Made by a program: the position numbers and the translations under genes. The notes under the pieces are model-generated. The model worked only from the letters and a program-made list of their open reading frames with translations. It was not told the DNA's origin and ran no database searches. Shown piece by piece: positions 373 to 46,331 of a DNA stretch of 64,000 nt. Each line of letters starts with the position of its first letter. The first letter of the stretch is position 1. The DNA is from Candidatus Latescibacterota bacterium (lineage in GTDB: Bacteria > Latescibacterota > UBA2968): contig OZ220741.1 in the NCBI GenBank assembly GCA_965116885.1, positions 2,464,001 through 2,528,000 on the forward strand, given 5' to 3'.

Positions 373-1542
373 CTAAAACTTGAATATTTTGCGTTCGGTT
401 TGTTCAAGGGTTTGTTCGATGAGGGGGGCGAGGTCGAGCGTGGATTCGATTTCGCGGACTTTTTCCAAATTGGCGCGCGTTTCGGGGTGTTTGGGGACAA
501 AGACAGAACAACAATCTTCGTAGGGTTCAATGGAGATTTGATATGTGCCAATGCGCCGGGCCTCGTTGATGATTTCTTCTTTGTTGTCACCGGCTAATGG
601 TCGCAAGATAGGCAGCGGGATAACATCTTCGATGACGCGCATGTTCGACAGGGTTTGCGAGGCGACCTGTCCGACGTTTTCGCCTGTGACGAGTGCCTGG
701 GCATTGACTTTTTGGGCTATGGCTTCTGCAATGAGAAGCATGGCGCGGCGGTAGAGAATGACGCGGTAGCTCGCAGGTGCTCGCATCATTATATGGCGTT
801 GAATTTCGACGAATGGCACCAGGTACAGGTCCGACACGTATTGATGCCGGGTGAGGAGTTGCACGAGGTCTTCGGTGTTGCGCTGGGAGTTGCGATTGGT
901 ATAGGGCTGGCTGTGAAAATGCACATAAGTCAATTTGACGCCGCGTTTCATAATTTTGTAAGAAGCTACGGGTGAGTCAATGCCCGAGGAGATGAGGCTT
1001 ACTGCGCGTTCATTGGATCCGACGGGCAAACCCCCTGGTGCCGAAATTTTTTCGGCGTAGATAAATATGCGTTGTGGGGCAATTTCAATAAAGCAGGTGA
1101 GGTCTGGATTGTCCATCAGGACGCGGGCACCCGACAGGGTTTGAATATGCTTGCCCACATCCCGATTGATCTGGTCCGAATTGAGGGGAAAGGTTTTGTC
1201 GCCGCGTCTGGTGACAATTTTGAAGGATTGAAAGTCGGTTTTTTGTGCAAGTGCCCAGGCTGTTTCTCGAATGGCTTCGATATTGCGTTTGGCGACCACT
1301 GCTTCGGAAAAGTTGGCGATGCCAAAGACTGTTGAGAGTCGTTCTCGGATTACATCTATCGGCGATTCTGAGGTGAGTGCGAGCATCATGCGGCCCGATA
1401 GACGTTCGAGCTTTCCGCAGGGTACGTCTTTGAGTGCGCGGTTGATGTTGGTCATCAGACGCCGTTCAAATTTGCCCCGATTTTTGCCTTTGAGGCCAAT
1501 TTCGTGATAGTGTATGAGTATGAAGCGGTCGTTGGTCGTCAT
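373..1542 (-). CDS. thiI: tRNA 4-thiouridine synthase ThiI
   Basis: HYHEIGLKGKNR N-terminus, THUMP domain, PP-loop SSGIDSPVA, SQTLSN, ILRPL, EDCC. Confidence 0.95.
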   Translation of the reverse strand: MTTNDRFILIHYHEIGLKGKNRGKFERRLMTNINRALKDVPCGKLERLSGRMMLALTSESPIDVIRERLSTVFGIANFSEAVVAKRNIEAIRETAWALAQKTDFQSFKIVTRRGDKTFPLNSDQINRDVGKHIQTLSGARVLMDNPDLTCFIEIAPQRIFIYAEKISAPGGLPVGSNERAVSLISSGIDSPVASYKIMKRGVKLTYVHFHSQPYTNRNSQRNTEDLVQLLTRHQYVSDLYLVPFVEIQRHIMMRAPASYRVILYRRAMLLIAEAIAQKVNAQALVTGENVGQVASQTLSNMRVIEDVIPLPILRPLAGDNKEEIINEARRIGTYQISIEPYEDCCSVFVPKHPETRANLEKVREIESTLDLAPLIEQTLEQTERKIFKF

Positions 1543-3122
1543 GAGATGGGTTGGGGATTAAGGGATAAATCGCGCTGGAGTATAACGAGGGTTATATCGT
1601 CGGTGCGCCGCGCGTTGCCAATAAAGGCTTTGATATTGGCGACGAGGTCGGCAATCAGGTCTGTGGGTGTCCGATCTATGGATGCGCGTTCGAGACAACG
1701 GACAAATCGGTCGTCGTCAAAGAAGTTGCGTTTGGCATTTTGGGCTTCGACAACACCGTCGGAGTAGAGCACAAGGCGATCACCGGGTGCGAGTGTTAAA
1801 TGTTCAACGCGATAGGGCGTTTGGGGGCGTACAAGTGCCGGAATGCCAAGGGGATATCCCGCGAGGTCGATAAATTGAGATCGGTTGGAAAGATGGATCG
1901 GTGGACAGTGTCCTGCACTTGCAAGCGTGACTTCGCCGGTGGGTACGTCGAGCACAGCGATGCAGCATGTGATAAATGTAGTCTGGTCAATCTGACCTTC
2001 CAGTGAGTCATTAAGACCGTCGAGAATATCGGCTGGCGCAACGCGATTTTGACATTCATAGCGGAGCATTTCATTGAAACGCACGGCGGTCACGGCTGCT
2101 TCCATGGCTTTGCCAGAGACATCGGCAACGACGATGCCGAGTTTTGTTTTGTCTTCATCCAACCAGCGGTACGTATAGTAATCCCCGCCGACGCTGTTGG
2201 CGGGAATACAGGTTCCGTCGATTGCAAAACCAGGCAGGTCGGGACTGGATTGTGGCAATAGACCCATTTGCATGTCGTGCGCTGTTTGCAATTCGTCGCG
2301 CATTTCCGAAAATTGTTGTTTGTAGCTCTCCCACTGTCGCGCTTCTTCGCAAAGGGTCTGGTTGTAGGCCGATGCAAAAATTCCGAGGGCGAGGGGTTGA
2401 AAGAGGACGAAGACACAGAGTTGGGCTAAGGCATTGTCGGTGATGCTGTCGGTGAGAGCGACTGAGCCTGCAAGAATTCCGAGCGCGGTGAGTATAAGCG
2501 CGCAGTGGCGAAAAAAGCCGTAGCGTTCTACAGCTTTGCGACTTTCGACATAGGCTTCATCGATGTGTACCCCCCGGTCTGCTGCCAGAAGATAGATATA
2601 GAAGCATTTGACAACAAAAATGAGGCCGGGTAAAAATAAGAGGCAAGCTGCCGGAATGACGGCATAATAAATAATATTTTTGTCTTCTAAGAATCTTCCA
2701 ATGTTTTCTGGTGCAGTGGGGATATCCCAGGTCGTTTCCCGAGCGACGACCTGTTTGAATGCATTGAGCAGGAATGCAAAGAAATCACTGTTCACAAAAA
2801 CCAGCGCCACAATGAGGGCGAAGCCGAGAATAAAAAACAGGAAGATAAAAATGTTCATCGAAAAAAAACGGACGAAACGAATGATCTGCCCAAATAGATC
2901 TCGCATATGGGGTTTTGCTCCTTGCTGCGCGCGCAAGATCATGATGGCAAAGCCAGCATATAAGCTGCCCAGGAGCAAAGTGCCCGATACCGCACTCAGG
3001 AGTATTGCCAAGAATGAAGCGAGGAACAAAAGGGGCAGGTGACTTGCCCAGGAAGATATGCTGTCGTTGAGACAGCGAAGGTATTGGAGATTTGCCCGAA
3101 CGGGGATATCGAGAGGAGCCAT
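1539..3122 (-). CDS. Membrane-bound PP2C/SpoIIE (RsbU-like) phosphatase
   Basis: Multi-TM N-terminus, coiled coil, VGGDYY, ADVSGK, YSDGVVEA, DDITLV motifs. Confidence 0.9.
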   Translation of the reverse strand: MAPLDIPVRANLQYLRCLNDSISSWASHLPLLFLASFLAILLSAVSGTLLLGSLYAGFAIMILRAQQGAKPHMRDLFGQIIRFVRFFSMNIFIFLFFILGFALIVALVFVNSDFFAFLLNAFKQVVARETTWDIPTAPENIGRFLEDKNIIYYAVIPAACLLFLPGLIFVVKCFYIYLLAADRGVHIDEAYVESRKAVERYGFFRHCALILTALGILAGSVALTDSITDNALAQLCVFVLFQPLALGIFASAYNQTLCEEARQWESYKQQFSEMRDELQTAHDMQMGLLPQSSPDLPGFAIDGTCIPANSVGGDYYTYRWLDEDKTKLGIVVADVSGKAMEAAVTAVRFNEMLRYECQNRVAPADILDGLNDSLEGQIDQTTFITCCIAVLDVPTGEVTLASAGHCPPIHLSNRSQFIDLAGYPLGIPALVRPQTPYRVEHLTLAPGDRLVLYSDGVVEAQNAKRNFFDDDRFVRCLERASIDRTPTDLIADLVANIKAFIGNARRTDDITLVILQRDLSLNPQPIS

Positions 3123-3127
3123 AGCAA

Positions 3128-4537
3128 TCAGGGTTTTTCTTTGTTGAGTTTGTATTTGCGGTACAGGTGGCGAAATTGGTCGTAGCTGAGTTTGAGTTGT
3201 TTGGCGGCTTCGCGCTGGTTCCAGGAGACTTTATCGAGAATGCGCCGCAATAGACTCAGTTCAAAGGATTGCACTTGTGATTCAAAGCCGTCGTTTAATT
3301 CGGGTGATTGGGGCACCTGTTGAGAAACTTCGGGTGGCAGATCGCCGGATTCAATCTCAGTTCCACGGGCGACACAGGCTGCGCGTTCGGCTGCAAATTT
3401 GAGTTCGCGCACGTTGCCCGGCCAGCGATATGTCATCAGGCGTTCTGTTGCCGCATCGGAAAAATCGCGTTTTTGAAGGCCCGGTACTTCCTCGACGATT
3501 TGCGCGACAAAATAATCGGCTAATGCGGGAATGTCTTCTCGGCGTTCGCGCAATGGGGGCATGTGCAAGACTTCAAAACGCAATCTGTCGTAGAGGTCCT
3601 GGCGGAATCGGCCTTCGGCAATTTCCGTTTCGAGATTGGTATTCGTGGCGGCAATAACGCGCACGTCGATAAAGATGGGTGTCGCGCTGCCCACGCGCTG
3701 GATTTCGCTATATTCTATGGCGCGCAATACGTTTTGTTGAAATTCGGGGGTGGTGTTGCCGATTTCATCGAGAAACAGGGTGCCGCCACTCGCGGCTTCA
3801 AATTTGCCCGTGCGGGCTTCTGTCGCGCCCGTATATGCCCCTTTTTCGTGTCCAAAGAGTTCACTTTCGAGCAATTGGTCGGCAATGGCGGCGCAATTGA
3901 CTTTGACAAAAGGACGGTCTTTGCGGTCACTGCCATAGTGGATGGCAGCGGCGACGAGTTCTTTGCCCGTTCCGGGTTCGCCCGTGATGAGCGCGGGCCG
4001 GGGGATGGGGGCTACGGTTTGCGCTCGCTGGAGAATTTGCTGGAGTTTGGGGCTGGAGCCGATGATTTGATAACGCTTGCCAAATTCGTCTCGGTAGAAT
4101 TGGTTTTCGCGCCCCAGGTCCTGAACTTCGGCTCGCAGTTGGGCGTTTTCTCTGAGTGCTTGATACACGCGGTCGAGTTTTTCAAGGCTGAGTTCGATCT
4201 TGTCTTCGATATAAAAGTCTTTTTCAATAAAGTCTGTTGCGCCCAATCGCAATGCAGCCACGGCAGTATCTATTGTGCCCTGGCCGGTGAGCATAATGAC
4301 GGGCAGGGCGGGGACCGCTTCGAGCATTTGCGGTAAAATTTCGAGGCCGTCGGGTTCATTGGGGCCGTAATCGAGGTCGAGAATGGCCAGACTAATCTGA
4401 TCGGGATACTGTTTGAGATGTGCCAGAGCTTCGCGCCCGGTCGAAAAGGCATGGACAGTGCGCGTGTCGTCTCGCAGGCTTCGAATTAGCATGTCGAGGA
4501 CTTCTATCTGGTCGTCAGCAACGATAATTTCGGTCAT
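3128..4537 (-). CDS. Sigma-54 enhancer-binding response regulator (REC-AAA+-HTH), PspF-like
   Basis: REC (ADD, LDLD, MLTG, DFIEK); [54 protein letters not shown] resembles the PspF C-terminus. Confidence 0.92.
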
Positions 4538-4559
4538 GGGAGCAATATTGAAAAGGGTC

Positions 4560-5822
4560 TTATTGAATAAATTCTTCTGCTATAGGATCGCGTGAGGTGT
4601 CGGGAACGCTGTGTTGCAGACCAATGCTGTCTTGTTGTGTTGAGACTTCAAAATCGACGGGCAGGTCAATGCGGAAAACCGCACCTGCGCCCGGGCGGCT
4701 GATTACGCGCAGTGTGCCGCGGTGTGCCGCTGCAATGCGAGAGCAGATACTCAGCCCATATCCATTGCCCCTTTCCCGCGTTGAAAATCCGGGGTCAAAT
4801 ATACGGGTTTGCAAATTTTCGGGAATGCCGGGACCATTGTCTTCTACTTCAATATATACCGAACTGCGCTCTGTATCAGCGCCGACCTGTACTGTTACCA
4901 CGCCATTGTCTTCAACGGCTTCGATGGCGTTGAGGGTCAGGTTTGTGACGGCTTCAGATAGCATGCCTGCATCCGCTTTTACCTGAGGTACATGAGGTTC
5001 GGCTGCAAATGTGAGCTCTTTTTGCCCTGCTCGTGCAGAGAGTTTGTGGGTCATTTTTTCAATGAGTTGGGGCACATCGACCAGCGCGGGGTTCATGGTG
5101 TCTTGTTTCATAGATCGCAAATAGGCAACCCACTGGTTGTAGATGTGTTCTTGTTCGTGCGCGATGTCTTTAAGATCATCCAGGCCGTGTGTATCTGGCG
5201 GTACATTGCGTATGGCGCGGCGCATTCGGCTGCCGGAGAGGCCCATCAGATTTTTGATGCGGTGGCCGTGCGTGTAGAGGCTTTCATAGACCTGGGCGCG
5301 GCCCAGGTCTATGAGTTCGAGAGAGAGCCGCGCGAGAATACCCGGTGCTCTAACACCAAATTCTTCGGTGATGCTTTCGTATTCGCGTTCCATTTGCGTT
5401 GAACTCATGTGGTGAAAGAGCAATCGAGCGAGATTACCATAGGGCAGCATGTAATCGGGTTCGAGGTGTATGGCGATTTTAAACTCGCCAAGTGCCGATA
5501 AAATTTGCCCATTTTGCATGAGCAAAACGCCCAGGTTGTTGTGCCCGGGCGCGAAGAGTGGATCGGCTTCTAAACCCCGGCGATAAATGGGAATCGCGCG
5601 AGATGCGTTTTCCGGAAAGTCATCGAGCAGGCTACCCAATAAAAAACAGACGCGGTCAATGAGGGCTTGTTCACCACCCCGGTTATCGACAGACAAAATG
5701 TATTCGAGGTGTTCAACCGCTTTTTTGTAGTCGTCTGAACCCGGTGTTGCCCCGCGAGCGTGTTGTAGGGCCGTTTGGAAACGGGATTCTATGTCCGGGG
5801 CTATGTTCAGGGTGTTGGTCAT
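4560..5822 (-). CDS. Soluble TPR-containing sensor histidine kinase
   Basis: TPRs (HNNLGVLLMQNGQ, YGNLARL); H-box HRIKNLM; NLTLNAIEA, EDNGPGIP, IFDPGFST, GNGYGL. Start moved to MTNTLN to avoid overlap with flotillin. Confidence 0.88.
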   Translation of the reverse strand: MTNTLNIAPDIESRFQTALQHARGATPGSDDYKKAVEHLEYILSVDNRGGEQALIDRVCFLLGSLLDDFPENASRAIPIYRRGLEADPLFAPGHNNLGVLLMQNGQILSALGEFKIAIHLEPDYMLPYGNLARLLFHHMSSTQMEREYESITEEFGVRAPGILARLSLELIDLGRAQVYESLYTHGHRIKNLMGLSGSRMRRAIRNVPPDTHGLDDLKDIAHEQEHIYNQWVAYLRSMKQDTMNPALVDVPQLIEKMTHKLSARAGQKELTFAAEPHVPQVKADAGMLSEAVTNLTLNAIEAVEDNGVVTVQVGADTERSSVYIEVEDNGPGIPENLQTRIFDPGFSTRERGNGYGLSICSRIAAAHRGTLRVISRPGAGAVFRIDLPVDFEVSTQQDSIGLQHSVPDTSRDPIAEEFIQ

Positions 5823-5844
5823 AGCAGTACTTGTGCGTTGTCGC

Positions 5845-7365
5845 CTACGCCTCTGCGTCTTCTGTGGTATCGGGTTTGTCATTTTCCCCGGACGTTTGTT
5901 CGCCGTTCATTTTGCCCAAAAATTCGGGTAATTCAAGCCCTGCCAGACGCGCCAGATCGTGCATGGGCGGTATGGCACCCATGAGGCGTTGTCCCAGGTT
6001 GGACATGCCACTGTCGCCATTGCCGCTATCCCAGACCATTACTTTGTCGATGGGCAGGTTGCTAATGGCCTCTGCCTGGATGTTGGCGACTTCGGTGAGG
6101 CGTTCGATGATCAGGAAGGCCGCTGCAGCTTGATCGTTGCTGCCACAGGCTTCAACGAGTTGTCTGTATCCTTCGGCTTTCGCGTTGAGAATGGCCTGAG
6201 TCCCCTCAGCTTCTGCCTGTTTTTGTGCGAGAATGGCTGCGGCTTCACCTTCGGCAATAAGCCGTCGCTGTTCTTTTTCGGCTTCTGCTTGAACGACCTG
6301 GCGCTGTTTTTCGGCTTCTGCCTGAACGACGATTTCTGCCCGCAAACGCGCTTCTTCGCGCAGTGCTCGGGCTTCTTCGGCTGCTTTTTCCGCGGTTTCC
6401 TGGGCGACGCGAATGGCACCGTCGGCACCTTTGGCCGCTTCTTCTGCTTTTCGGCGCGCTTCTTCTTCTGCAACGCGTTGCTGTGCGCGATAGCCCGCTG
6501 TTTTTGCTTCGGCTTCTGTTTCTGACTGTACGGCTTCTGCTTCGAGAGCGGCGACATTTTGGCGTTTGTCTCGCCCTGCCTCGGCTTCGCCAATTTCTGC
6601 TTCTGATTCGAGTGCGGCGACCTGTCGTCGTCTGTTTCGCGCGGCTTCGGCTTCGCCCACTTCGGCTTCTGATTCGGCTGCGGCGACGTCCCGACGGCGG
6701 TCGCGTGCGCGTTCGGCCACGCCGACCTGTCCGTGTCGCTCTTGCTCGGCCACGTCGATAGATGCCTGGTTCACGGCTTCAGCGGCAGCTTTTTGGCCGA
6801 TGGCTTTGATGTAGCCGCTTTCGTCGTCGAGGTCTTTGATGTTGACATTGATAACGGCCAGACCAATTTTTTCCATTTCAGTGGAGACGGCATCATTAAC
6901 TTTGGTCATGAATGCCTGTCGGTCCTGATTGATTTCTTCAATTTTCATGGTTGCAATGACTGCGCGCATCTGGCCGAGGATGATGTCCTGTGCCTGGCTC
7001 TGAATTTGATCGCGGGACAGGCCCAGGAGGCGGATGGCTGCGTTTTGCATGACGCCGGGCTGATTGGAGATGGCTGCTGTGACTGTGGTGGGCACGGATA
7101 CGCGGATGTTTTCCTGTGATAGCGCGTTGTCCAGGTCGATGGGTACGACAAAGGGTTCGAGGTCGAGGTACTCGTAATCCTGCAAAAGGGGCAGGACAAA
7201 TGCTGCGCCGCCGTGTACACATTTTGCGGCTGTGCCACCTCCTGTTTTGCCGTAGATGACGAGAATTTTGTTGGATGGACAGCGCTTGTAACGCGAGATA
7301 AATGTGAGGAACAGCAATAATACAACGGCTGATAGGAGTACGGTGAGAATGAATTCGGTGGGCAT
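5845..7365 (-). CDS. Flotillin / SPFH-domain protein (YqiK/FloT-like)
   Basis: N-terminal TM, RYKRCPSNKILVIYG, SPFH domain, long AE-rich coiled coil with 22-aa repeats. Confidence 0.93.
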   Translation of the reverse strand: MPTEFILTVLLSAVVLLLFLTFISRYKRCPSNKILVIYGKTGGGTAAKCVHGGAAFVLPLLQDYEYLDLEPFVVPIDLDNALSQENIRVSVPTTVTAAISNQPGVMQNAAIRLLGLSRDQIQSQAQDIILGQMRAVIATMKIEEINQDRQAFMTKVNDAVSTEMEKIGLAVINVNIKDLDDESGYIKAIGQKAAAEAVNQASIDVAEQERHGQVGVAERARDRRRDVAAAESEAEVGEAEAARNRRRQVAALESEAEIGEAEAGRDKRQNVAALEAEAVQSETEAEAKTAGYRAQQRVAEEEARRKAEEAAKGADGAIRVAQETAEKAAEEARALREEARLRAEIVVQAEAEKQRQVVQAEAEKEQRRLIAEGEAAAILAQKQAEAEGTQAILNAKAEGYRQLVEACGSNDQAAAAFLIIERLTEVANIQAEAISNLPIDKVMVWDSGNGDSGMSNLGQRLMGAIPPMHDLARLAGLELPEFLGKMNGEQTSGENDKPDTTEDAEA

Positions 7366-7386
7366 AGGACCTCCCTTGGTTCAGGA

Positions 7387-7986
7387 TTAAATGGGTTCGA
7401 CTTCAACAGTGGTTATGTCGAGTGTTCGCAATACGCGCACCGGCGTTTTGTTCTGGATGGGCAGCCCGTCTTTGCTGCGCGCAGAGATGTAGTTGACAGC
7501 CCCGCTTTCCATTACGCGGATTTGACCAGCGCCATTTTCGGGGATGTCGATATAGACTTCGCCTTCATTGCCGATGCAGGATGATAGGTTTCGGTTATGC
7601 GATTCGGAGAGTTGTTGCACTTTGTAGAAGAAGTACGCAACCAGGACCATCCCCGCGCCGCCCCATACGAGGCCGCGTAGAACCGACTCTTCGATTGAGA
7701 GGCCCAGGTCGAGGTAGAGTGCGCCTGCCCATCCAAAGAGCATGCCAAAGGCGATCACAGAGCGCAGTGAGAGCAGTTGAAAGGTTGCGACACCGTGATC
7801 ATAAGGACTATTATCGACATCTGGTCCTGCATCGTTGGCATTGAAGTCGTCGGCAAGGCCATCTGCGGAATCGCCCAGGCCGATGAGTGTTGTGATAAAT
7901 TGCCAGAGAAACAAAAGGGTGAAGAAGACAGCGCAGCCATAGAATGCCTGATTGAGAGGCGCGAGTTCTGACCACCATGCCTGCAT
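7387..7986 (-). CDS. NfeD-like membrane protein (YqiJ/YuaF-like), flotillin partner
   Basis: TM helices, LLSLRSVIAF, C-terminal OB fold (IGNEGEVYIDIP...GQIRV); GGAGG RBS before MQAWW. Confidence 0.88.
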   Translation of the reverse strand: MQAWWSELAPLNQAFYGCAVFFTLLFLWQFITTLIGLGDSADGLADDFNANDAGPDVDNSPYDHGVATFQLLSLRSVIAFGMLFGWAGALYLDLGLSIEESVLRGLVWGGAGMVLVAYFFYKVQQLSESHNRNLSSCIGNEGEVYIDIPENGAGQIRVMESGAVNYISARSKDGLPIQNKTPVRVLRTLDITTVEVEPI

Positions 7987-8121
7987 AATTAACCTCCAGA
8001 AATCGATTGCGCGTTTTATCAACTACTTTGGGCAGAGAAGTAGGAAACTGCGACGCGTGAACCTGTTATTCCTAAATTTGTCCATGAGAGAGGCGAAAAG
8101 CAAGGGTTATTTCTTATCCGG

Positions 8122-8712
8122 TCATCCGGGTTGTAAACCGAGTTTGCGAAATTCGCTTTTGAGTTGGCGACGGGCGCGGCACAGCCATGTTTTGACGGTT
8201 CCAAGTGGAACGCGAAGCGCCTGTGTGATTTCTTCGTAAGACCAGTCCATGACGTAGCGCAACCACATGGCTTTGCGATAGCGTTCGGGTAAGTTTTGAA
8301 TGCTTTTGTGGACCAATTGTATGCGTTCGCGTTTTTCGACTATTTGGTCTGGTAGCGCGCCGGGTATGAGGTCGCGGATGACGTTGCGAACGACTTCGGG
8401 GTCTTCGGTTTGATAGACCCAGTTTTGCCGAACTTGTTGCGAGCGCAGGTGCGAGCGATAGACGTTGAGGGCAATTTGCGTGAGCCAGGTCGAAAATGCT
8501 GCCTGGCCTTTGAATGTGTGAAGCGAGCGATAGGCGCGGAAAAATGTGTCTTGCATCAGGTCGTCAATGGTATCGCGGTCCGAAATGCGCTGTGCGAGGG
8601 TGCCGTAGATCTGGTTCTGGTATTTGTGGTAGAGTTTTTCAAAGGCTCGGCTGTCGCCCGAGAGGGATGCGCGAATCAGATTTTGATCCTGTGTTTTCAC
8701 TTTTTTCTCCAT
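8122..8712 (-). CDS. ECF sigma-70 factor (SigW/RpoE-like)
   Basis: GDSRAFEKLY, DLMQDTFFRAY, AFSTWLTQIALN, SYEEI..LGTVKTWLCRAR. Confidence 0.93.
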   Translation of the reverse strand: MEKKVKTQDQNLIRASLSGDSRAFEKLYHKYQNQIYGTLAQRISDRDTIDDLMQDTFFRAYRSLHTFKGQAAFSTWLTQIALNVYRSHLRSQQVRQNWVYQTEDPEVVRNVIRDLIPGALPDQIVEKRERIQLVHKSIQNLPERYRKAMWLRYVMDWSYEEITQALRVPLGTVKTWLCRARRQLKSEFRKLGLQPG

Positions 8713-8770
8713 TCGTTAAGATAATTCGTTTATTACTATTCTCTTGTTTGTAACAAGACGGATTTTTCCG

Positions 8771-8941
8771 TCAGTCTCTTTTGATCAAGCGATAACCGAT
8801 CATAATACATATAACGGCGATGGCGAGTTTGAGCAGGAGAAAGAGTAGCCCAAATAGAGAGCCGATGAGCGGGAAGAGAACCTGGATGGCGATAATGCCA
8901 CCGATGATGATGAGTACGATGCCGATGAGTTTTGCCAACAT
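8771..8941 (-). CDS. 56-aa two-TM small membrane protein (absent from ORF track)
   Basis: Hand translation MLAKLIGIVLIIIGGIIAIQVLFPLIGSLFGLLFLLLKLAIAVICIMIGYRLIKRD*; AAAGGA RBS; fills the operon gap. Confidence 0.8.
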   Translation of the reverse strand: MLAKLIGIVLIIIGGIIAIQVLFPLIGSLFGLLFLLLKLAIAVICIMIGYRLIKRD

Positions 8942-8972
8942 GAGGTGTCCTTTTTATTTGTGAGGTTGTCCG

Positions 8973-9332
8973 TCATTCCGAGATGGTTTGCGGAGGTGAA
9001 AGTGACTTAACGGGCGAGCGGCTTTCGAGACGCTCGAGTTTGTCGTCGTTGGTGATGACGATATCTTGAAGGTCGATGAGGCGTTTTTCAAGTTCTTTCA
9101 CGCGTTTTGATAGTTTTTCAGACAGGTTGTTGTTTTTTGTCGATTTGTTTCTTTTTTTATTTTCTGACTCAAATGCGAATACGAGGGCGACAATGGTAAT
9201 GATAGCCATGGCAACCCAGGCCGCCGCCAGGATGAGGCCACCTCCAAATGTTGGGTTTTCAATATAGGCAATTGTACCGCCTGCAAGAATAATTAGACTG
9301 ATACCAACCGTGAGTGAGAGAAAGATGCGCAT
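8973..9332 (-). CDS. PspB-like membrane protein with cytoplasmic coiled coil (paralogue 3)
   Basis: Two TM segments plus RVKELEKRLIDLQDIVITNDDKL; GGGAGG RBS. Confidence 0.7.
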   Translation of the reverse strand: MRIFLSLTVGISLIILAGGTIAYIENPTFGGGLILAAAWVAMAIITIVALVFAFESENKKRNKSTKNNNLSEKLSKRVKELEKRLIDLQDIVITNDDKLERLESRSPVKSLSPPQTISE

Positions 9333-9355
9333 GGTGCCCTCCCTGTTAGTTTAAG

Positions 9356-9589
9356 TTAGCGAGAAATAGGCGATCGCTCGAATTTTTCGTCAATGGTGAT
9401 GAGGATGTCCTGAATGTCCGTGAGTCTGCGGTCGAGTTCGTCCATTCTCTCATTCAAGCGTTTTTCCGCATCGCTGGGGATAGATCCTTTTGTGCGGCGG
9501 TCAATGTATTTGTGTACTGCTGATGCAATGGCTCCTACAATGATGATCAGCAATATGCCACCCATAGTGACACCAATAACATTAGTCAT
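9356..9589 (-). CDS. PspB-like single-TM coiled-coil protein (paralogue 2)
   Basis: TM plus RMDELDRRLTDIQDILITIDEK; AGGAGG RBS. Confidence 0.72.
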   Translation of the reverse strand: MTNVIGVTMGGILLIIIVGAIASAVHKYIDRRTKGSIPSDAEKRLNERMDELDRRLTDIQDILITIDEKFERSPISR

Positions 9590-9600
9590 GTTACCCCTCC

Positions 9601-9801
9601 TTATTTTCTGCTGAGTTTTTCGTCAATGGTGATCATGACGTCCTGAATGTCTGTGAGCCTGCGGTCGAGTTCGTCCATTCGTTCATTCAAGCGTTCTTCT
9701 GCATCGCTGGGGATTGAGCCTTTGGTGCGGCGATCGACGTATTTGTGTACCGCTGATGCGAGAATGATTATCGCTACCATGATTCCAATTTCAAACATCA
9801 T
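9601..9801 (-). CDS. PspB-like single-TM coiled-coil protein (paralogue 1)
   Basis: TM plus RMDELDRRLTDIQDVMITIDEK; near-duplicate of 9356..9589; GGGAGG RBS. Confidence 0.72.
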   Translation of the reverse strand: MMFEIGIMVAIIILASAVHKYVDRRTKGSIPSDAEERLNERMDELDRRLTDIQDVMITIDEKLSRK

Positions 9802-9822
9802 TTGTTTGCCCTCCCATACACA

Positions 9823-10494
9823 TTAGAGTTCATCCACGGGTCTCGCGCGGTGTTTTTCATCCCAGTGTTCGATTTCCGGAAAATGGTAAACGACGAGTCC
9901 CGAATCTGAGATTCGCATTTCCGCATGACCACTTATGGTTAATTCTCGCAGGATTTCTTCGGTTTTTTCAACTGTTATTCTGGTGTCCATAGCAGTTTCT
10001 GTCACGGTGAGGCTGCCCCCTTTATCCCGGGCGAGACGGAGTATGCGGTGCTGGTTTTTGGCATGTGCTTTTTTGTCTCCCGATCTTTTGACCTTGCGAC
10101 CTGCCCACCATATAATCTGAGAGATGATGATTAGCACGAGGCCGCCACTGAGTTCTTCGTGCATGAATGGGTTTGTGCCATCGACCCAGGGAGGATATTG
10201 TATCACTACCATGAGTACGAGCATGAGGCCGCTAAATCCCATAAGTGCAGCCATTCCTATTAAACCATAAGCGAAGAGATAACGCATGGCACAACTCCCA
10301 TCGGTGGCGAGGTCAGAGAGGCGGTCGGGCACGCGCTTGAATGAATTGGTTGCACTTTGGAAATCACTGCTCGCAGTGTGAACGCGCGCCTCCCAGTTTC
10401 CCCTCCATTTCTTTTTTATTTTTCGCTCCGCATCGTTGACCGCGCGGTCAATTTTGCTGGCGATTTCATCGGCGAGTTTTTCCAGGTCACGCAT
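9823..10494 (-). CDS. Membrane protein: N-terminal coiled coil, 2 TM, C-terminal winged-helix-like domain
   Basis: Overlaps pspA stop; C-terminal ILRLARDKGGSLTVTE..TEEILREL..GHAEMRISDSGLVVYHFP. Confidence 0.75.
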   Translation of the reverse strand: MRDLEKLADEIASKIDRAVNDAERKIKKKWRGNWEARVHTASSDFQSATNSFKRVPDRLSDLATDGSCAMRYLFAYGLIGMAALMGFSGLMLVLMVVIQYPPWVDGTNPFMHEELSGGLVLIIISQIIWWAGRKVKRSGDKKAHAKNQHRILRLARDKGGSLTVTETAMDTRITVEKTEEILRELTISGHAEMRISDSGLVVYHFPEIEHWDEKHRARPVDEL

Positions 10495-11164
10495 CTTTTT
10501 GTCCCATTTTCTTTTTTAGTGCACTGAGTTCGTCTTCTACTGTGCTTTTGCGCTCGAGTTTGGAGAATTCTTCTTCCAGAGAGGGGTCAGCACTCGCCAT
10601 TTCTTGATGGGCTTCGGCTTCGGCTTCTTCGGTTTCGATGCGCTGGCGGAATCGTTCAAAGCTCGAAAATGCGTCTTCACCCACTCCCGAGAGGCCCCTG
10701 GCGATTTGCTTGCGGGCTTCGGCTGCACGACGTCGGGCAATTAGAGTGCCCTGGCGGGTGCGGGCTTCGTCGAGTTTGGCTTTGAGTTGGGTGAGTTGTT
10801 GTTTGAGTTGGGACGAGGTTTTACGGCTTTCTTCGAGGGCGACTTCGAGGTCGTGTGTGGCTTCCTGATTTGCAGCTTTGCGTTCGAGGGCGCGGCGGGC
10901 AAGGTCGTCTTCGCCGGCTTCAACGGCTAATTCGGCTTTTTTTTGCCAGGCTTCTATTTGATCTTGTTTTTCGAGATATTGTCTTTCCAGGCGTTTTTCG
11001 TTGGCTACAGCCGTGCCAACCGAAGCAGTGGCTTTATTGACGGCTTCTTCCATTTCCAGAATCATCTGGCGGATCATTTTTTCCGGGTCTTCTGCGCGGG
11101 TAATCAGGTCGTTGACGTTGGCTTTGACGATGTCGGCCATTCTGTAAAAAATTCCGCGTGCCAT
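10487..11164 (-). CDS. pspA: PspA/IM30 (bacterial ESCRT-III) family protein
   Basis: GIFYRMADIVKANVNDLITRAEDPEKMIRQMILEM, GEDDLARRALERK, SLEEEFSKLE, VEDELSALKKKM. Confidence 0.96.
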   Translation of the reverse strand: MARGIFYRMADIVKANVNDLITRAEDPEKMIRQMILEMEEAVNKATASVGTAVANEKRLERQYLEKQDQIEAWQKKAELAVEAGEDDLARRALERKAANQEATHDLEVALEESRKTSSQLKQQLTQLKAKLDEARTRQGTLIARRRAAEARKQIARGLSGVGEDAFSSFERFRQRIETEEAEAEAHQEMASADPSLEEEFSKLERKSTVEDELSALKKKMGQKDA

Positions 11165-11232
11165 GATCTGCTCCTTTCACAGGGTGATACATTTATGGGA
11201 TTCTGATGTTTTTTGTTGTCGCACTCTTTTTA

Positions 11233-11248
11233 TGCAAAGTCTATGCCA
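11233..11248 (-). promoter_or_regulatory. Sigma-54 -24/-12 promoter of pspA operon
   Basis: Minus strand TGGCATAGACTTTGCA = GG-N10-GC, ~70 nt upstream of pspA ATG. Confidence 0.88.
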
Positions 11249-11322
11249 GGAGTGCGATGAGGTGTTAAGTGTTGTTTTTCATACACATAGATATTTTTTG
11301 AAATAGGATAGGTCGATAAAGT

Positions 11323-11359
11323 TGGTGAAAATTGCCATGTGTTCTGGCGAAAGAGACCA
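11323..11359. promoter_or_regulatory. Two PspF-type upstream activator boxes
   Basis: TGGTGAAAATTGCCA (11323-37) and TGGCGAAAGAGACCA (11345-59): TGG-N9-CCA, 22 bp apart, about -100 to -136. Confidence 0.65.
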
Positions 11360-11492
11360 AATTTTCCATTTTTGATCGGATATTTTTAGAGGGTCACATC
11401 TTGTCTTTTTTTTCTAAAAGGTCTATTATCTATCGGTTTGTCGCAAGTTGGTCTCAAATACCATCACTTTCACTCTATACACTGAATTTTTT

Positions 11493-12944
11493 ATGTTTCG
11501 ATATATCCGACTGTTTTTGTTTGCCTGGTTATTTTTATCTTGTGCGGCACATGCGCCTGCTTTAACAGAGACTTATGTGGTGCAAAGAGGGGATTCTCTG
11601 TGGGAAATTGCCGATCAATTTTCCATGAGTGTGACTGAACTTAAGCGGAGCAATGGGTTGAGATCGCATCACATTTATCCGGGACAAAGACTGCTCATTC
11701 GCTCACAAAGGCTTCCCACGCGCTCTTCCAGTGGGGTAGAATACGTGGTGAGAAGGGGAGATTCGCTTTCTAAAATCGCCGCGCGATATTCTATGAGTGT
11801 GACCGAACTGAAGCGGCTTAATGGGTTGAGGTCGAATAATATTTATCCCGGACAAAGGCTTCGCACCCGCTCTGCAGTGCAACCGTCTCGCTTCCGCCCA
11901 TCTTCTGGCTACGTAGAAATGGACTATGTGGTGAGAAGGGGGGATACGCTTTCTAAAATTGCCGCACAATATTCTATGGGCCTGACCGAACTGAAGCGGA
12001 GCAATGGTATCCGATCAGATCGCATTCATGTGGGCCAGAGGTTAAAGATACGGACTCGGTTAACAAAGATCGCGATGGATAATGGGCCGTATTATTTTTC
12101 TCGTCCCAAAGCTGCTGTGCAACGCAGTCGGAGATATCGAGAAGTGCCCCCCAAAAAGCCGATTGAAGATTATAGGAGTGCCCGAAATTTGATGGGTGTG
12201 TTCAATGCAAGTATTAATTCTGATATGCGTCGAGATGGCAGATCATTGAATGGCTGGCGCATTGTGCTCGACCCGGGGCACGGTGGACGCGATCCGGGTG
12301 CTATTGTTTCCAATTTAGATGGCAATAATCGTTCGGTTTATGTGGTCGAAGACGAATTTGTTTACGATATCGCGTTGCGTTTGTACCAAAAACTGAGGCT
12401 TGCAGGTGCCGAGGTGGAGATGACGGTGATTAGTCCAAATCATCTCATTCGAGAAAATAATCCGCCTTCGAGGACGTTTGTACACGAACAAAACGAAGTC
12501 TATAACGATGCAAGCGCCAACAGAAGAAATAGTTTTTCAGTGCGTCCGGGGCTTGATAATATTGTACAAAGAGTAAAAATAGCCAACCGTTTCTTTGCAA
12601 GGCGCGGGAAGACTCTGTTTATATCGCTGCATGCAGACAACACACCCAATCGTCCAAAGGGTCCGCTGGTTATTTATTGGAGCAGGCGCGGGAAGATCGA
12701 TTCGCGGTCCCGGGCATTTGCGCGGATTATGGAAAGGGCACTCGATCTGCCAGATGTGCCCGCTCAAATTGGGGGGCGCAATCTGGCGGTGTTGCGAGGC
12801 AATCTGGCGCAGGCAGAAATTTTGGTGGAGATACGCAATGTACATCATAAGGGCGAAGCATGGGCATTGCGGTCCCACAAGATGCGCGACTCCGATGCGG
12901 ATCGCATTTTTCGCGGGATCTTAAATTACGCGAAGAGGTATTAG
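11493..12944 (+). CDS. LysM (x3) N-acetylmuramoyl-L-alanine amidase (Amidase_3), possible lipoprotein
   Basis: Three YVV(Q/R)RGD LysM repeats; IVLDPGHGGRDPGA, FISLHAD, ILVEI; FLSC lipobox-like. Confidence 0.9.
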   Translation: MFRYIRLFLFAWLFLSCAAHAPALTETYVVQRGDSLWEIADQFSMSVTELKRSNGLRSHHIYPGQRLLIRSQRLPTRSSSGVEYVVRRGDSLSKIAARYSMSVTELKRLNGLRSNNIYPGQRLRTRSAVQPSRFRPSSGYVEMDYVVRRGDTLSKIAAQYSMGLTELKRSNGIRSDRIHVGQRLKIRTRLTKIAMDNGPYYFSRPKAAVQRSRRYREVPPKKPIEDYRSARNLMGVFNASINSDMRRDGRSLNGWRIVLDPGHGGRDPGAIVSNLDGNNRSVYVVEDEFVYDIALRLYQKLRLAGAEVEMTVISPNHLIRENNPPSRTFVHEQNEVYNDASANRRNSFSVRPGLDNIVQRVKIANRFFARRGKTLFISLHADNTPNRPKGPLVIYWSRRGKIDSRSRAFARIMERALDLPDVPAQIGGRNLAVLRGNLAQAEILVEIRNVHHKGEAWALRSHKMRDSDADRIFRGILNYAKRY

Positions 12945-19950: not shown

Positions 19951-20148
19951 AGTTTGTGACCTGTGGAATTGTTTTTGAGGGACGGGGGTTATTAGGCAGA
20001 ACAAATAATCTATAAAGGATACTGAAAATAAGCAACCAAATTTTCCTCCTCAGGCGGGCGTTTAAATTCACCCCGGTCTTATATCTGCCTTAAAAAAGTG
20101 ACATTTTGATCTGTGTGATGTGTTAAAAAATAAAGCGATGGATTGTTT

Positions 20149-20616
20149 ATGAATGTCGAATTGTTATATCAAAAATACGGTCCCATGGTGTTGCGGCGAT
20201 GCCGGCGGTTGTTGCGAGATGAAGATTGCGCCATGGATGCGATGCAGGATGTGTTTGTGCGGGTATTGCAACGCGGAGATCGTTTGAAAGCGATCTATCC
20301 GTCGAGTTTGCTGTATCGCATTGCGACCAATGTGTGTTTGAATCGCATTCGTGACCAGCGGCTCGATCTGCCGGGCGATGAGGTGTTGATGCATATTGCG
20401 GGGATGGAAGATCCAGAACCTCGATTGGATGCCCGGGCGATGCTGGACCGGCTTTTTGCGCGACATAGAGATTCGACGCGAACAATTGCGGTTTTGCATT
20501 TTGTGGATGGGTTAACATTGGCGGAAGTTGCTCAAGAAGTGGGGATGTCGGTTTCTGGGGTGCGAAAGCGGTTGCGGGGGTTGCGAGAATCGCTGGAGAA
20601 GTTGGAGGAGCTATGA
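20149..20616 (+). CDS. ECF sigma-70 factor
   Basis: LYQKYGPMVLRRCRRLL, DAMQDVF, LYRIATNVCLN, GLTLAEVAQEVGMS. Confidence 0.92.
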   Translation: MNVELLYQKYGPMVLRRCRRLLRDEDCAMDAMQDVFVRVLQRGDRLKAIYPSSLLYRIATNVCLNRIRDQRLDLPGDEVLMHIAGMEDPEPRLDARAMLDRLFARHRDSTRTIAVLHFVDGLTLAEVAQEVGMSVSGVRKRLRGLRESLEKLEEL

Positions 20617-21371
20617 CGAGACAATGCGGTGATTGGGAACTGGAGCGTTTTCGACTGGGTGAATTGCCAGAAGAAGAAATGGAAGCTATTCAAAGGGCGC
20701 TGGATGCGGATCCAGATTTGAGGACGCGTTTGGAGGCATTGGAAGGGTCAGATCGGGAAATTCACATGTCCTATCCGGCTGATTGGGTGGCGCAGCAGGT
20801 GGCGCGGCGTTTGCAGAGACGAGAGGTGCCGAGTATATCGCGGTTCGATCCGCGTTTTGCATTGGTCGCTGTGATTTTGCTGGCCGCTGTTTTTGCGATC
20901 TATTTGCCGGGGCCTGAAGTGCCGCCGACCTGGGATCGAAAAGGTGTGGATGGCATTCGGTTAAAAGGCGTAAAGCCGGATTTGTTGTTGTATCGAAAAA
21001 GGGCGTCTGAGGTTGAACAATTGGCGGATAGCAGTGTGGCTTATGCGGGTGATTTAATTCAGATTTTTTATCGCGCAGCGGGCAAGCCTTTTGGGGTGAT
21101 TGTGTCTGTGGATGGGCGCGGTACTGTGACGCGGCATTTGCCCGCTTCGGGAACAAGTGCCGTGCGGTTGATACAGGGCGATCCCGTGCCGCTGGATTAT
21201 TCTTATGAACTGGATGATGCCCCGAAGTGGGAACGGTTTTATTTTTTGACAGCAGATGCGTCTTTTGATGTGCGCGATGTGACACAAGCGGCAAAGGAAG
21301 GGCTCGATTCATTGCGGGTGGGAAGAGAATTTGAGCAGTTTGCCATTACGCTTTACAAAGGGGGCAGGTGA
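20613..21371 (+). CDS. Single-TM anti-sigma factor with extracytoplasmic DUF4384-like domain
   Basis: ATGA overlap with sigma; LERFRLGELP anti-sigma-type N-terminus, TM, RLKG, GDLIQIFY, VSVDGRG, YELDDAP. Confidence 0.8.
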   Translation: MTRQCGDWELERFRLGELPEEEMEAIQRALDADPDLRTRLEALEGSDREIHMSYPADWVAQQVARRLQRREVPSISRFDPRFALVAVILLAAVFAIYLPGPEVPPTWDRKGVDGIRLKGVKPDLLLYRKRASEVEQLADSSVAYAGDLIQIFYRAAGKPFGVIVSVDGRGTVTRHLPASGTSAVRLIQGDPVPLDYSYELDDAPKWERFYFLTADASFDVRDVTQAAKEGLDSLRVGREFEQFAITLYKGGR

Positions 21372-22933
21372 TGTTGCGCCGATGGACAGTACTGTTGGGG
21401 ATCGGTCTGCTGTTATGTGCTCAGGGAATTGAGGCATCACAAGTTGTGCGGCGTTTTGTGTTGGCGGCTGGTGCAAATTTTGGTGGGGAGAAACGCACGC
21501 CTCTGCGTTATGCCGTATCGGATGCAAAACATTTTGCTCGTGTTTTAAAGATGATGGGTGGGGTTGAATCTGAGGATCAATTTTTGTTGGCCGAGCCGAG
21601 TTTGGAAAATTTTAAACGGGTTTTGGTGGATTTGCAAACCCGGGTCATAAAAGCATCCCAATCGTCGAGTCGCATCGAAGTTGTCCTGTATTATTCCGGG
21701 CATGCCGATGAAAATGGGTTGCTGTTGGGAGAAGATCGGTTGACCTATCGCGCTTTGCGAGATGCAATGAATAGCGTTCAGGCGGATGTGCATATTACTG
21801 TGCTCGATGCGTGTGCTTCGGGTGCTATTACGCGCCTGAAAGGCGGGCAAAGGCAAAAAGCCTTTATGGTCGATACGTCGTCGGATATGCGGGGGTATGC
21901 GTTTTTGACTTCGAGTTCCGAAAATGAGGCTGCACAAGAATCGGATCGCATTCGCGGGTCGTTTTTCACGCATTATCTGGTGTCTGGCTTGCGGGGGGCA
22001 GCAGATGTGACTGGTGATGGTAAGGTGACACTCAGCGAAGCGTATGCGTTTGCATTTCGCAATACGCTGAAGCGAACGGAAAAAACTCAGGGAGGGGCAC
22101 AGCATCCGGCTTATGATATTAAGATGACGGGTACAGGTGATGTGGTGATGACCGATGTGCGAGAGACGTCGGCGAGTTTGATTTTGTCAGATGAGTTGAA
22201 TGGCCGATTTTTTGTGCGTAATTCGCAGGAGCAACTGGTGGCAGAGTTGGACAAGTCCGCCGGGCAAACGCTCGAGTTGGGATTAGAACCCGAGGTTTAT
22301 GACGTTCATTTTGAACAGCGAACGCAATTGTTGCATTCAAAGGTCGCTTTAAAAAGGGGTGAGCGGTTTTTGCTTGAGAATCGGCATTTTCGCTCTCAAG
22401 TGCGCGAAAAAACCACGAGCCGAGGGCCTGCGTTGAGGAAGCCAGCGACCGGGACATCTGCCCGCTATCCACACAGACTATCCGGCAGATGGCGTCTTGA
22501 ACGCAGTAGGGGTGCCTGGCAACTGGGGGATGATAGCAAAGCCTGGATTTTTGGATTCTGGCCCACGGAACATGTTTCGATCAACTATTCTCGTTCGGGA
22601 TTTTCGGTTGCTGACGATACAAAAACGGGTGTGTCATCGGAACTGGTCAGTCTGCGTATTTATATGCCTTTGAATATGTGGCGTTCACCTTTGCGCCCTT
22701 ATGCCGAAGGAGGCGTCGGTCGATACACGGGTAAAGTATTGGATGAGAATGTCGATGAAGTGAATGGGTTGTATTGGGGTGGTGGACTGGATGTGCCGTT
22801 TATGAAGTTTTTTGTTCTGGGTGGACGCATAGGCTATAACCGGTTTGTCGAGCCTTTTGCTGTGCCGGTGGATGGGCAAACGGATTATAGTGGAATGGAG
22901 TACAGCGTGGGGTTGGGGTTGTTGTTATTCTGA
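21368..22933 (+). CDS. Exported caspase-family (C14) protease with C-terminal outer-membrane beta-barrel
   Basis: Signal peptide; LRYAVSDA, YYSGHA (His), LDACASG (Cys), GSFFTHYL; amphipathic strands ending ...GLGLLLF. Confidence 0.85.
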   Translation: MMLRRWTVLLGIGLLLCAQGIEASQVVRRFVLAAGANFGGEKRTPLRYAVSDAKHFARVLKMMGGVESEDQFLLAEPSLENFKRVLVDLQTRVIKASQSSSRIEVVLYYSGHADENGLLLGEDRLTYRALRDAMNSVQADVHITVLDACASGAITRLKGGQRQKAFMVDTSSDMRGYAFLTSSSENEAAQESDRIRGSFFTHYLVSGLRGAADVTGDGKVTLSEAYAFAFRNTLKRTEKTQGGAQHPAYDIKMTGTGDVVMTDVRETSASLILSDELNGRFFVRNSQEQLVAELDKSAGQTLELGLEPEVYDVHFEQRTQLLHSKVALKRGERFLLENRHFRSQVREKTTSRGPALRKPATGTSARYPHRLSGRWRLERSRGAWQLGDDSKAWIFGFWPTEHVSINYSRSGFSVADDTKTGVSSELVSLRIYMPLNMWRSPLRPYAEGGVGRYTGKVLDENVDEVNGLYWGGGLDVPFMKFFVLGGRIGYNRFVEPFAVPVDGQTDYSGMEYSVGLGLLLF

Positions 22934-46287: not shown

Positions 46288-46331
46288 TAACAATAAGTTA
46301 TTGCTCCAAGCGGTTCTGGCACGCTCCTTGC
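46288..46331 (+). promoter_or_regulatory. Sigma-54 promoter with IHF-like site upstream of comM/yifB
   Basis: TGGCACGCTCCTTGC (46317-31, GG-N10-GC); TAACAATAAGTTA (46288-300), one mismatch to WATCAANNNNTTR. Confidence 0.75.

Follow-up and report, generated by a model that had tools for sequence, protein, structure and literature searches.

How a phage shock protein (Psp) cluster is switched when its PspF-like activator carries a receiver domain and is encoded next to a histidine kinase is the question raised by a locus of Candidatus Latescibacterota. PspF is the textbook sigma-54 activator that has no regulatory domain and is controlled in trans by PspA. The cluster lies in a stretch of 64,000 nucleotides (C1:2464001-2528000 of a single-contig genome of 5.56 Mb, labelled G000; hereafter the window). 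It comprises 13 open reading frames, all on the minus strand, running from 11164 to 373 with intergenic distances of -38 to +135 nt (Table 1). An earlier note made from the sequence had described 13 co-oriented genes behind a sigma-54 site, and both stand, the site before pspA being an exact consensus. The sigma-54 promoter is probably switched on by the cluster's own soluble tetratricopeptide repeat (TPR) kinase, which would phosphorylate a receiver-bearing sister of PspF, in place of the classical release of PspF from PspA. A kinase-linked form of Psp is real and conserved here, and phylogeny, synteny and promoter motifs lend its core wiring good support, sensing and the chemistry of the kinase being inferred. 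Papers are cited by accession.

Promoter, enhancers and predicted regulon

As in classical Psp systems, pspA is preceded by a sigma-54 promoter with upstream enhancer sites. Exact matches to the sigma-54 consensus occur twice in the window, and one of them is the pspA site. Upstream regions of 46 pspA genes were counted after one short region had been dropped. The palindrome YGGY-N7-RCCR was present in 42 of them (shuffles, 9%), with at least two sites in 29, and a sigma-54 site in 34; the pattern was derived from the same sequences in which it was counted, and the loci are kin, so that the counts overstate independence.

Since the pattern was read off these sequences, checks held out from it, across the genome and in E. 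coli, weigh more. The genome has 114 AT-rich sigma-54-like sites, of which four have an upstream enhancer motif and two a tandem. Both tandem-bearing promoters precede pspA operons, namely the present one and that of a second pspA at C1:2285579, after which comes the only paralogue of the 56-amino-acid (aa) gene. This second operon (G000:C1:2285404-2286441; L003) is the predicted other member of the regulon. In E. coli the motif lies, with one mismatch, before both pspA and pspG, and as a raw count the one-mismatch motif was found in four of the five proteobacterial pspF loci that had a detected sigma-54 site (nine loci examined).

Genes farther 3' at the second pspA locus resemble, on a reading of their sequences, a channel-associated protein and a mechanosensitive channel. 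A third pspA (G000:C1:2681478-2683300; L002) had no sigma-54 match upstream and is preceded by a 131-aa gene.

A receiver-bearing relative of PspF

The best NCBIfam match of the activator was PspF (TIGR02974), at 342 bits against a cut-off of 443.55. Its N-terminal receiver sets it outside that equivalog, which is defined by having no N-terminal regulatory domain. For phylogeny the AAA domain alone was used, from 118 activators. These included ten true PspFs (that of E. coli and nine above the cut-off among the 121 genomes of a Pseudomonadota sample) and outgroups from ten unrelated genomes, none with a PspF above the cut-off. The ten PspFs and 25 receiver-bearing proteins formed an exclusive clade (FastTree support 1.0). 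In IQ-TREE, run on 56 of the 118 rows, the joint clade received an SH-aLRT support of 100, as the earlier naming of the activator as PspF-like would have it, and the receiver family alone received 65; PspF nested in the receiver family and PspF as its sister therefore both fit. A PspF-type motif in the AAA domain and another in the recognition helix were both found in 10/10 PspFs, 25/25 family members and 0/83 other activators.

An alignment of 13 members shows receiver residues D8, D9, D54 and K106 to be invariant. In the sigma-54 contact loop, this activator and that of locus L072 have GAYTGA, and the other members listed have GAFTGA. In a Desulfobacterota-centred sample, 33 of 151 genomes gave matches at E<=1e-130 (best 1e-138; about ten candidates scored per genome), and the five loci put in the tree proved to be ordinary activators outside the PspF/receiver clade. 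A plasmid search with E. coli PspF returned, among the matches listed, close enterobacterial copies only, and was not used.

The kinase and its H-box

The kinase has no membrane segment (maximum hydrophobicity 1.02), and its structural model (pLDDT 83) contains TPR helices, a long dimerisation and histidine phosphotransfer (DHp) helix and a catalytic domain. Its closest homologues, 81-97% identical, are from Candidatus Latescibacterota, and most relatives carry about 110 extra TPR residues at the N-terminus. A search of 50% representatives with a TPR-DHp profile was dominated by long TPR proteins, and three of the 150 listed matches were full-length. The predicted phosphotransfer residues, a histidine in the kinase and an aspartate in the receiver, are both present.

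The H-box reads H-[RQ]-[ILM]-K-N in 52/52 kinase homologues; H+1 is Arg or Gln in all of them, not the acidic residue of HisKA kinases, and Asn at H+4 is invariant. In HisKA kinases an acidic H+1 is needed for autokinase activity and Thr or Asn at H+4 serves phosphatase activity, and a bacteriophytochrome with a non-acidic H+1 is a phosphatase (PMC8292422). Other kinases of this genome in which the H-box was read have His-Glu. With so atypical an H-box the protein may act mainly as a phosphatase. The chemistry would then be inverted, the TPR protein keeping the activator off until stress relieves it, and the phosphoryl group coming from a small donor or another kinase. We consider this unlikely, because 41 aligned members from two phyla show no variation at His207, at either N-box asparagine or at the G-box glycines, a pattern that suits an ATP-using kinase. 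Other H-box motifs do exist in kinases of the HWE/HisKA2 type, though these are not the class of the present protein (PMC12148442). In HWE/HisKA2 kinases Glu replaces the first N-box Asn (PMC12148442); membership was rejected here, Asn314 being invariant in 41/41. Whether the protein works as a kinase of unusual chemistry or is chiefly a phosphatase is the main question about the system.

The PspA docking patch

Variants of E. coli PspF at Y51, L52 and W56 escape inhibition by PspA (PMC3791423). This YLW docking patch reads Y-G-K in the activator, and W56 is present in 10/10 PspFs and 0/25 members of the receiver family. The enterobacterial docking logic that the earlier note had brought in therefore appears to be lost. 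PspA might nevertheless inhibit the activator through another surface, in addition to control by phosphorylation. Tyr51 is retained here and in most Latescibacterota members, and PspA is conserved as 'EME' at the position of E. coli E37, a residue that has a role in E. coli PspA and can be cited for such dual control. A second PspA site on PspF is also the subject announced in the title of PMC6003685. Leu52 and Trp56 are lost, however, and the Myxococcota members have lost Tyr51 too, so that we hold this dual control to be improbable and retain control by phosphorylation.

Conserved core and lineage-limited additions

Twenty-one loci were compared, 20 of them picked from 60 relatives for spread and long contigs and the other being L072 (L071 and L073 were dropped as duplicates). 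The pspA and 56-aa genes were present in 21/21, the kinase in 20/21 and the activator in 19/21 (one contig ends first). The ECF (extracytoplasmic function) sigma factor gene and the winged-helix gene were each found in 19/21, nfeD-flotillin in 11/21, a PP2C gene adjoining the activator in 11/21 (confined to family f1 and L072) and thiI in 14/21, as counted within the fetched DNA. Kinase and activator follow pspA in 19 of the 21, and one further contig stops after the kinase. In the genus the synteny proposed for checking is conserved, with the full gene order in 16/17 loci; the remaining one is without PP2C, and the number of tail genes varies from 1 to 4.

In the sister order (family f3) 16/16 pspA loci have the order pspA, winged helix, tail genes, 56-aa gene, kinase and activator, with tail genes in 14/16 and the 56-aa gene in 9/16. 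The ECF gene, nfeD, flotillin, PP2C and thiI are absent from all 16. No flotillin was found with this query anywhere in genomes G021, G030 and G051; among flotillin-bearing loci the flotillin tree broadly tracks the kinase tree, which fits one gain followed by several losses. By these comparisons the cluster is a six-part core (pspA, winged helix, tail proteins, 56-aa protein, kinase and activator) with later layers: ECF, NfeD-flotillin, PP2C and thiI are additions limited to certain lineages, and the last two are probably passengers.

The winged-helix profile matched 100 of 153 genomes of the phylum, and the sister order gave four further weak matches with no pspA nearby. Metagenome contigs (L148-L167) likewise carry distant homologues of the winged-helix membrane protein, with no pspA detected close by. 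The activator gene of G100 is directly followed by a second pspA and a TM2-domain gene (L112:7354-8465), and in G021 two transposase-like genes split the cluster between the winged-helix and tail genes (L039:13095-15668).

The ECF protein does not reach the SigW equivalog (116 vs 209 bits), and no anti-sigma family was matched among the 13 cluster proteins in Pfam or NCBIfam. The 56-aa gene upstream of it also occurs without an ECF gene. Because there is no recognisable anti-sigma neighbour and the gene is missing from every sister-order locus, the ECF factor fits better as an output of the circuit than as a SigW-like input. An ECF factor transcribed from a sigma-54 promoter is known in HrpL (PMC5263251).

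A sigma-70-like site was found 3' of the ECF stop codon in 10/20 loci against 0.5 expected, with a pattern fitted on the same data. This candidate internal promoter might keep the genes after it expressed at a basal level; in some relatives the ECF gene abuts the kinase gene and leaves no room for it. The hairpin that follows the 56-aa gene is unconserved beyond the genus and has no clear T run, and was for these reasons not counted as a terminator.

The earlier note had read the 13 genes as one transcript that merges control of the PspF, SigW and LiaRS types, ECF and PP2C serving as inputs. The short gaps, the want of a strong minus-strand terminator between the genes, the gene order kept within the genus and a flotillin tree that broadly follows the kinase tree, as for a pair long in place, speak for this reading. 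Against it, none of the added genes occurs in the sister order, flotillin is missing from the three genomes named above, and neither a STAS nor an anti-sigma partner for ECF or PP2C was recognised in the cluster. A candidate promoter follows the ECF gene, and the PP2C is one of four SpoIIE-type proteins in the genome, three of them encoded elsewhere. Of the single logics, SigW-type control lacks its anti-sigma neighbour, and LiaRS-type control would involve a membrane kinase and a regulator of receiver-HTH (helix-turn-helix) type, where the kinase here has no hydrophobic segment and the regulator is receiver-AAA-HTH. A merger of three logics in one 13-gene unit is accordingly quite improbable. 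Of the internal breaks that the earlier note named as counting against its reading, no strong minus-strand terminator was found between the genes, and for a promoter there is a candidate after the ECF gene.

The kinase-activator pair in a second phylum

In a sample centred on Myxococcaceae a strong activator match was found in 15/201 genomes (E<=1e-168), and 14 loci were examined, 13 from these 15 and one from G347. The kinase lies directly 5' of the activator in 12/14, and two pspA genes then follow in 10/14. In at least seven of the 14, nfeD or flotillin comes after pspA; the gene order differs from that in Latescibacterota, and the one Myxococcota flotillin compared was 28% identical to that of the cluster. 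Enhancer and sigma-54 sites recur in these loci, and no winged-helix, tail or 56-aa genes were detected in them. The minimum common to both phyla is kinase, activator and PspA, of which PspA is the only non-regulatory part, and PspA would hence be the likeliest input to the kinase.

Several Myxococcota loci have a gene for a receiver-adenylate/guanylate cyclase between activator and pspA (e.g. L264:14004-15068), and a 250-aa gene of unrecognised family stands between the second pspA and nfeD.

In a Verrucomicrobiota-centred sample one of 121 genomes gave a candidate match, beside an SPFH gene with a sigma-54 site, and no kinase or pspA was found in 19 kb. Database names add one Planctomycetota and one Haliangiales member. 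Activators of this type that adjoin nfeD-flotillin or an SPFH gene, with neither kinase nor pspA in the fetched DNA, were seen at L276:2389-5694 and L282:9365-13104. A wider link of the activator lineage to SPFH proteins is suggested by these neighbourhoods.

That the pair regulates something else and is here by chance would suit the Myxococcota and Verrucomicrobiota-group loci in which the activator has no pspA nearby, yet linkage in two phyla with different gene orders, the PspF-type DNA-binding helix and the restriction of enhancer tandems to pspA operons leave this hardly credible.

Several observations weigh against control of PspA by a phosphorylated activator. The H-box has a non-acidic H+1 and an invariant H+4 Asn, and Tyr51 of the docking patch is retained. 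The enhancer pattern was counted in the kindred sequences that yielded it. In G032 pspA, its sigma-54 site and one enhancer site are kept, with kinase and activator missing at the locus. L270 and L273, both Myxococcota loci, carry the kinase and activator without a following pspA, and in G347 and G712 an activator of this type neighbours SPFH genes, the fetched DNA containing neither kinase nor pspA; from these four the pair is not tied to pspA everywhere.

Membrane partners

The C-terminal coiled-coil tail of B1-B3 occurs within the genome at this locus only, and the relatives have it attached to single helices, to TM2 domains and to repeat domains. A Toastrack (DUF2807) gene is inserted in the loci of two relatives. 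The earlier label 'PspB-like' for these genes holds for their architecture and fails by profile. Pfam PspB matched one of 20 tail-family members, with E 0.045, below the cut-off, and the tail profile gave E. coli PspB 7 bits; PspB identity was therefore rejected. For the 56-aa protein, PspG identity was likewise rejected, its profile giving E. coli PspG -4.6 bits, and of 33 families for 22 members of the 56-aa family, the 25 shown did not include PspG. The B3 region (window 8998-9356) is skipped in contigs of three RNA runs from one study, so that the tail-gene array differs between strains.

Residues 142-206 of the 223-aa protein adopt a winged-helix fold. In structural comparison this scored Z 10.3 (root-mean-square deviation, rmsd, 5.6; 77 aligned) and 9.9 (rmsd 1.8; 68 aligned) against ESCRT-II chains, scores that tie with ArsR/MarR types and fall under a Z-alpha domain (11.6). 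By this comparison an ESCRT-II type could not be told from a generic winged helix. For this protein the ESM Atlas returned unnamed clusters with scores under 0.9. Linkage of PspA to winged-helix proteins is known in general (PMC11188069).

Proposed circuit

In the circuit proposed, envelope damage would alter the activity of the kinase. The activator, phosphorylated at Asp54, would bind the two palindromes and open the sigma-54 promoters of this and the second pspA operon. PspA would then form polymers on the membrane, brought there by the winged-helix, coiled-coil-tail and 56-aa membrane proteins. The co-induced ECF factor would hand the signal on to further genes as a second tier, and, where present, NfeD-flotillin would act as a scaffold. 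The internal promoter would maintain a basal level of kinase and activator.

Free PspA may bind the TPR region of the kinase and hold the kinase off, and the PspA feedback of E. coli would thus run here through the kinase; we put this forward tentatively, at somewhat less than an even chance. Doubtful as a whole, in our judgement, is an evolutionary scheme in which a receiver-bearing, kinase-controlled activator is the ancestral form of PspF and the pool of free PspA was at first reported to a soluble TPR kinase. The PspF of proteobacteria would have lost receiver and kinase and gained the YLW patch, by which PspA came to dock directly on the activator, the anchored winged helix would nucleate PspA as ESCRT-II does ESCRT-III, and the sensor array would share a docking tail.

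A sister lineage with a receiver, a soluble kinase and the same enhancer motif would offer a testable route for the evolution of PspF control, and a new way to regulate a bacterial ESCRT-III protein. The core parts are all soluble or small, so that the system could be rebuilt in E. coli. The combination of 13 genes matters less, as a lineage-specific accretion around the core.

Feature list and neighbouring genes

Families matched above the Pfam cut-off in the cluster were PspA_IM30, Sigma70_r2/r4_2 (ECF type), Band_7, HATPase_c with TPR_17, Response_reg with Sigma54_activat, SpoIIE and ThiI. The pspA product did not reach the TIGR02977 equivalog (181 vs 243 bits). The 223-aa protein, the three small genes and the 56-aa gene had no family above cut-off in Pfam or NCBIfam. 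No PspC domain was found in a Pfam scan of the cluster proteins, as the earlier note had remarked. Its NfeD call agrees with position and domain, and falls under the Pfam cut-off (E 0.011-0.013). Going by lengths in relatives, the probable start codons are ATG 7986 for nfeD and ATG 5822 for the kinase.

Table 1. Features of the kinase-linked Psp cluster (window positions).
Feature	Position	Strand	Remarks
Distal enhancer, 15-bp palindrome YGGY-N7-RCCR, predicted activator site	11345..11359	-	111 nt upstream of sigma-54 site, 22 nt from proximal site
Proximal enhancer, predicted activator site	11323..11337	-	89 nt upstream of sigma-54 site
Sigma-54 (-24/-12) promoter	11233..11249	-	Exact consensus; 84 nt before pspA start
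pspA (PspA/IM30, ESCRT-III family), 225 aa, core	10487..11164	-	PF04012 159 bits (cut-off 33.9)
Membrane hairpin and C-terminal winged helix, 223 aa	9823..10494	-	Core in Latescibacterota; no Pfam family
B1, single transmembrane (TM) segment, C-terminal coiled-coil tail	9601..9801	-	Tail common to B1-B3
B2, paralogue of B1	9356..9589	-	74% identical to B1
B3, two TM segments, same tail as B1/B2	8973..9332	-	Absent from some strains
56-aa two-helix membrane protein	8771..8941	-	Core; single paralogue in genome, 3' of second enhancer-bearing pspA
ECF sigma factor, order-level addition	8122..8712	-	Family match; 19/21 loci, 0/16 sister-order loci
Candidate internal housekeeping-type promoter	8075..8103	-	Weak in this genome; pattern fitted on same sequences
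NfeD/YuaF-like membrane protein, accessory	7387..7986	-	Below Pfam cut-off; NfeD position and domain
Flotillin (Band 7 and coiled coil), accessory	5845..7365	-	11/21 loci
Soluble TPR histidine kinase, core	4560..5882 (probable start 5822)	-	H-[RQ]-x-K-N box, His207; N-terminal TPRs shortened in genus
Receiver-AAA-HTH sigma-54 activator, PspF clade, core	3128..4537	-	Asp54 intact; PspA-docking patch lost
Membrane SpoIIE/RsbU-type PP2C phosphatase, family-level neighbour	1539..3122	-	Catalytic motifs intact
thiI, tRNA 4-thiouridine synthase, trailing housekeeping gene	373..1542	-	TIGR00342 382 bits, above cut-off

The best RNA runs containing the stretch were sponge metagenomes, and in the contigs of the four runs compared, out of 24 listed, genes and the divergent intergenic gap are covered alike. 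A divergent LysM-amidase gene (window 11448-12944, +) shares the pspA intergenic region in most relatives of the order, and its number of LysM repeats appears to vary. The other exact sigma-54 consensus of the window (46317-46331, +) stands immediately 5' of a 512-aa gene, which we take from its sequence to be of ComM/YifB type. Another ECF sigma gene followed by a probable anti-sigma gene lies at window 20134-22933 (+), and the gene after this pair presumably encodes a caspase-domain protein.

Comparison with known systems

In the full-text literature, which leaves subscription journals largely uncovered, no account was found of a PspF that bears a receiver and is paired with a TPR kinase, and the available text of PMC3041696 and PMC7619361 contains no receiver-bearing PspF. 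The architecture as a whole also yielded no description, in keeping with the earlier note's view that the combination was undescribed; pairings of its components have been published (PMC9239133, PMC11237479). Acidobacteriota are reported to have PspA together with Band 7, FloT and NfeD, and actinobacteria to have it with kinases (PMC9239133). The survey PMC11237479 reports PspA with flotillin/YuaF-type genes, membrane-bound kinases and receiver-HTH regulators, and PspF variants with ACT or PAS domains. Its available text does not mention Latescibacteria and excludes PspF and two-component systems from detailed analysis, which may explain why the wiring was missed.

With PspF/pspABCDE of E. coli K-12 the cluster shares the sigma-54 promoter before pspA and the clade, DNA-binding helix and enhancer palindrome of the activator. 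Both have a small regulon of two promoters (those of pspA and pspG in E. coli, those of two pspA operons in the present genome) and small partners with TM and coiled-coil parts. Unlike the E. coli protein, the activator carries a receiver, has no YLW patch and is encoded co-oriented downstream rather than divergently. A cognate TPR kinase is present here, PspC is not, and by profile the partners are not PspB or PspG.

The B. subtilis SigW regulon includes PspA with flotillin/NfeD-type genes. The same trio is clustered in Acidobacteriota (PMC9239133) and in CesT/Tir-PspA-flotillin-YqiJ operons (PMC11237479). The present cluster differs from these operons and the SigW regulon in having no CesT/Tir chaperone, an accessory NfeD-flotillin pair and an ECF factor without a recognised anti-sigma.

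A PspA homologue encoded with a two-component system is also found in liaIH/LiaFSR of B. subtilis and in actinobacterial pspA-pspAA (PMC11237479), and the Toastrack genes of those systems recur here in two relatives. Their kinases are membrane-bound and their regulators of receiver-HTH type, whereas here a soluble TPR kinase is paired with a sigma-54 AAA+ activator. The pspF||pspABC locus of the alphaproteobacterium Erythrobacter litoralis (Table S3 of PMC11237479) resembles the cluster in a variable array of membrane proteins with one C-terminal tail beside pspA; unlike those PspB-tail arrays, the tail here is a distinct motif under the PspB profile and is fused to TM2, repeats and single helices. 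Finally, an ECF gene read from a sigma-54 promoter is shared with HrpR/S-sigma-54-HrpL of Pseudomonas syringae (PMC5263251), a system of unrelated function, whereas the ECF gene here is one gene within a stress operon.

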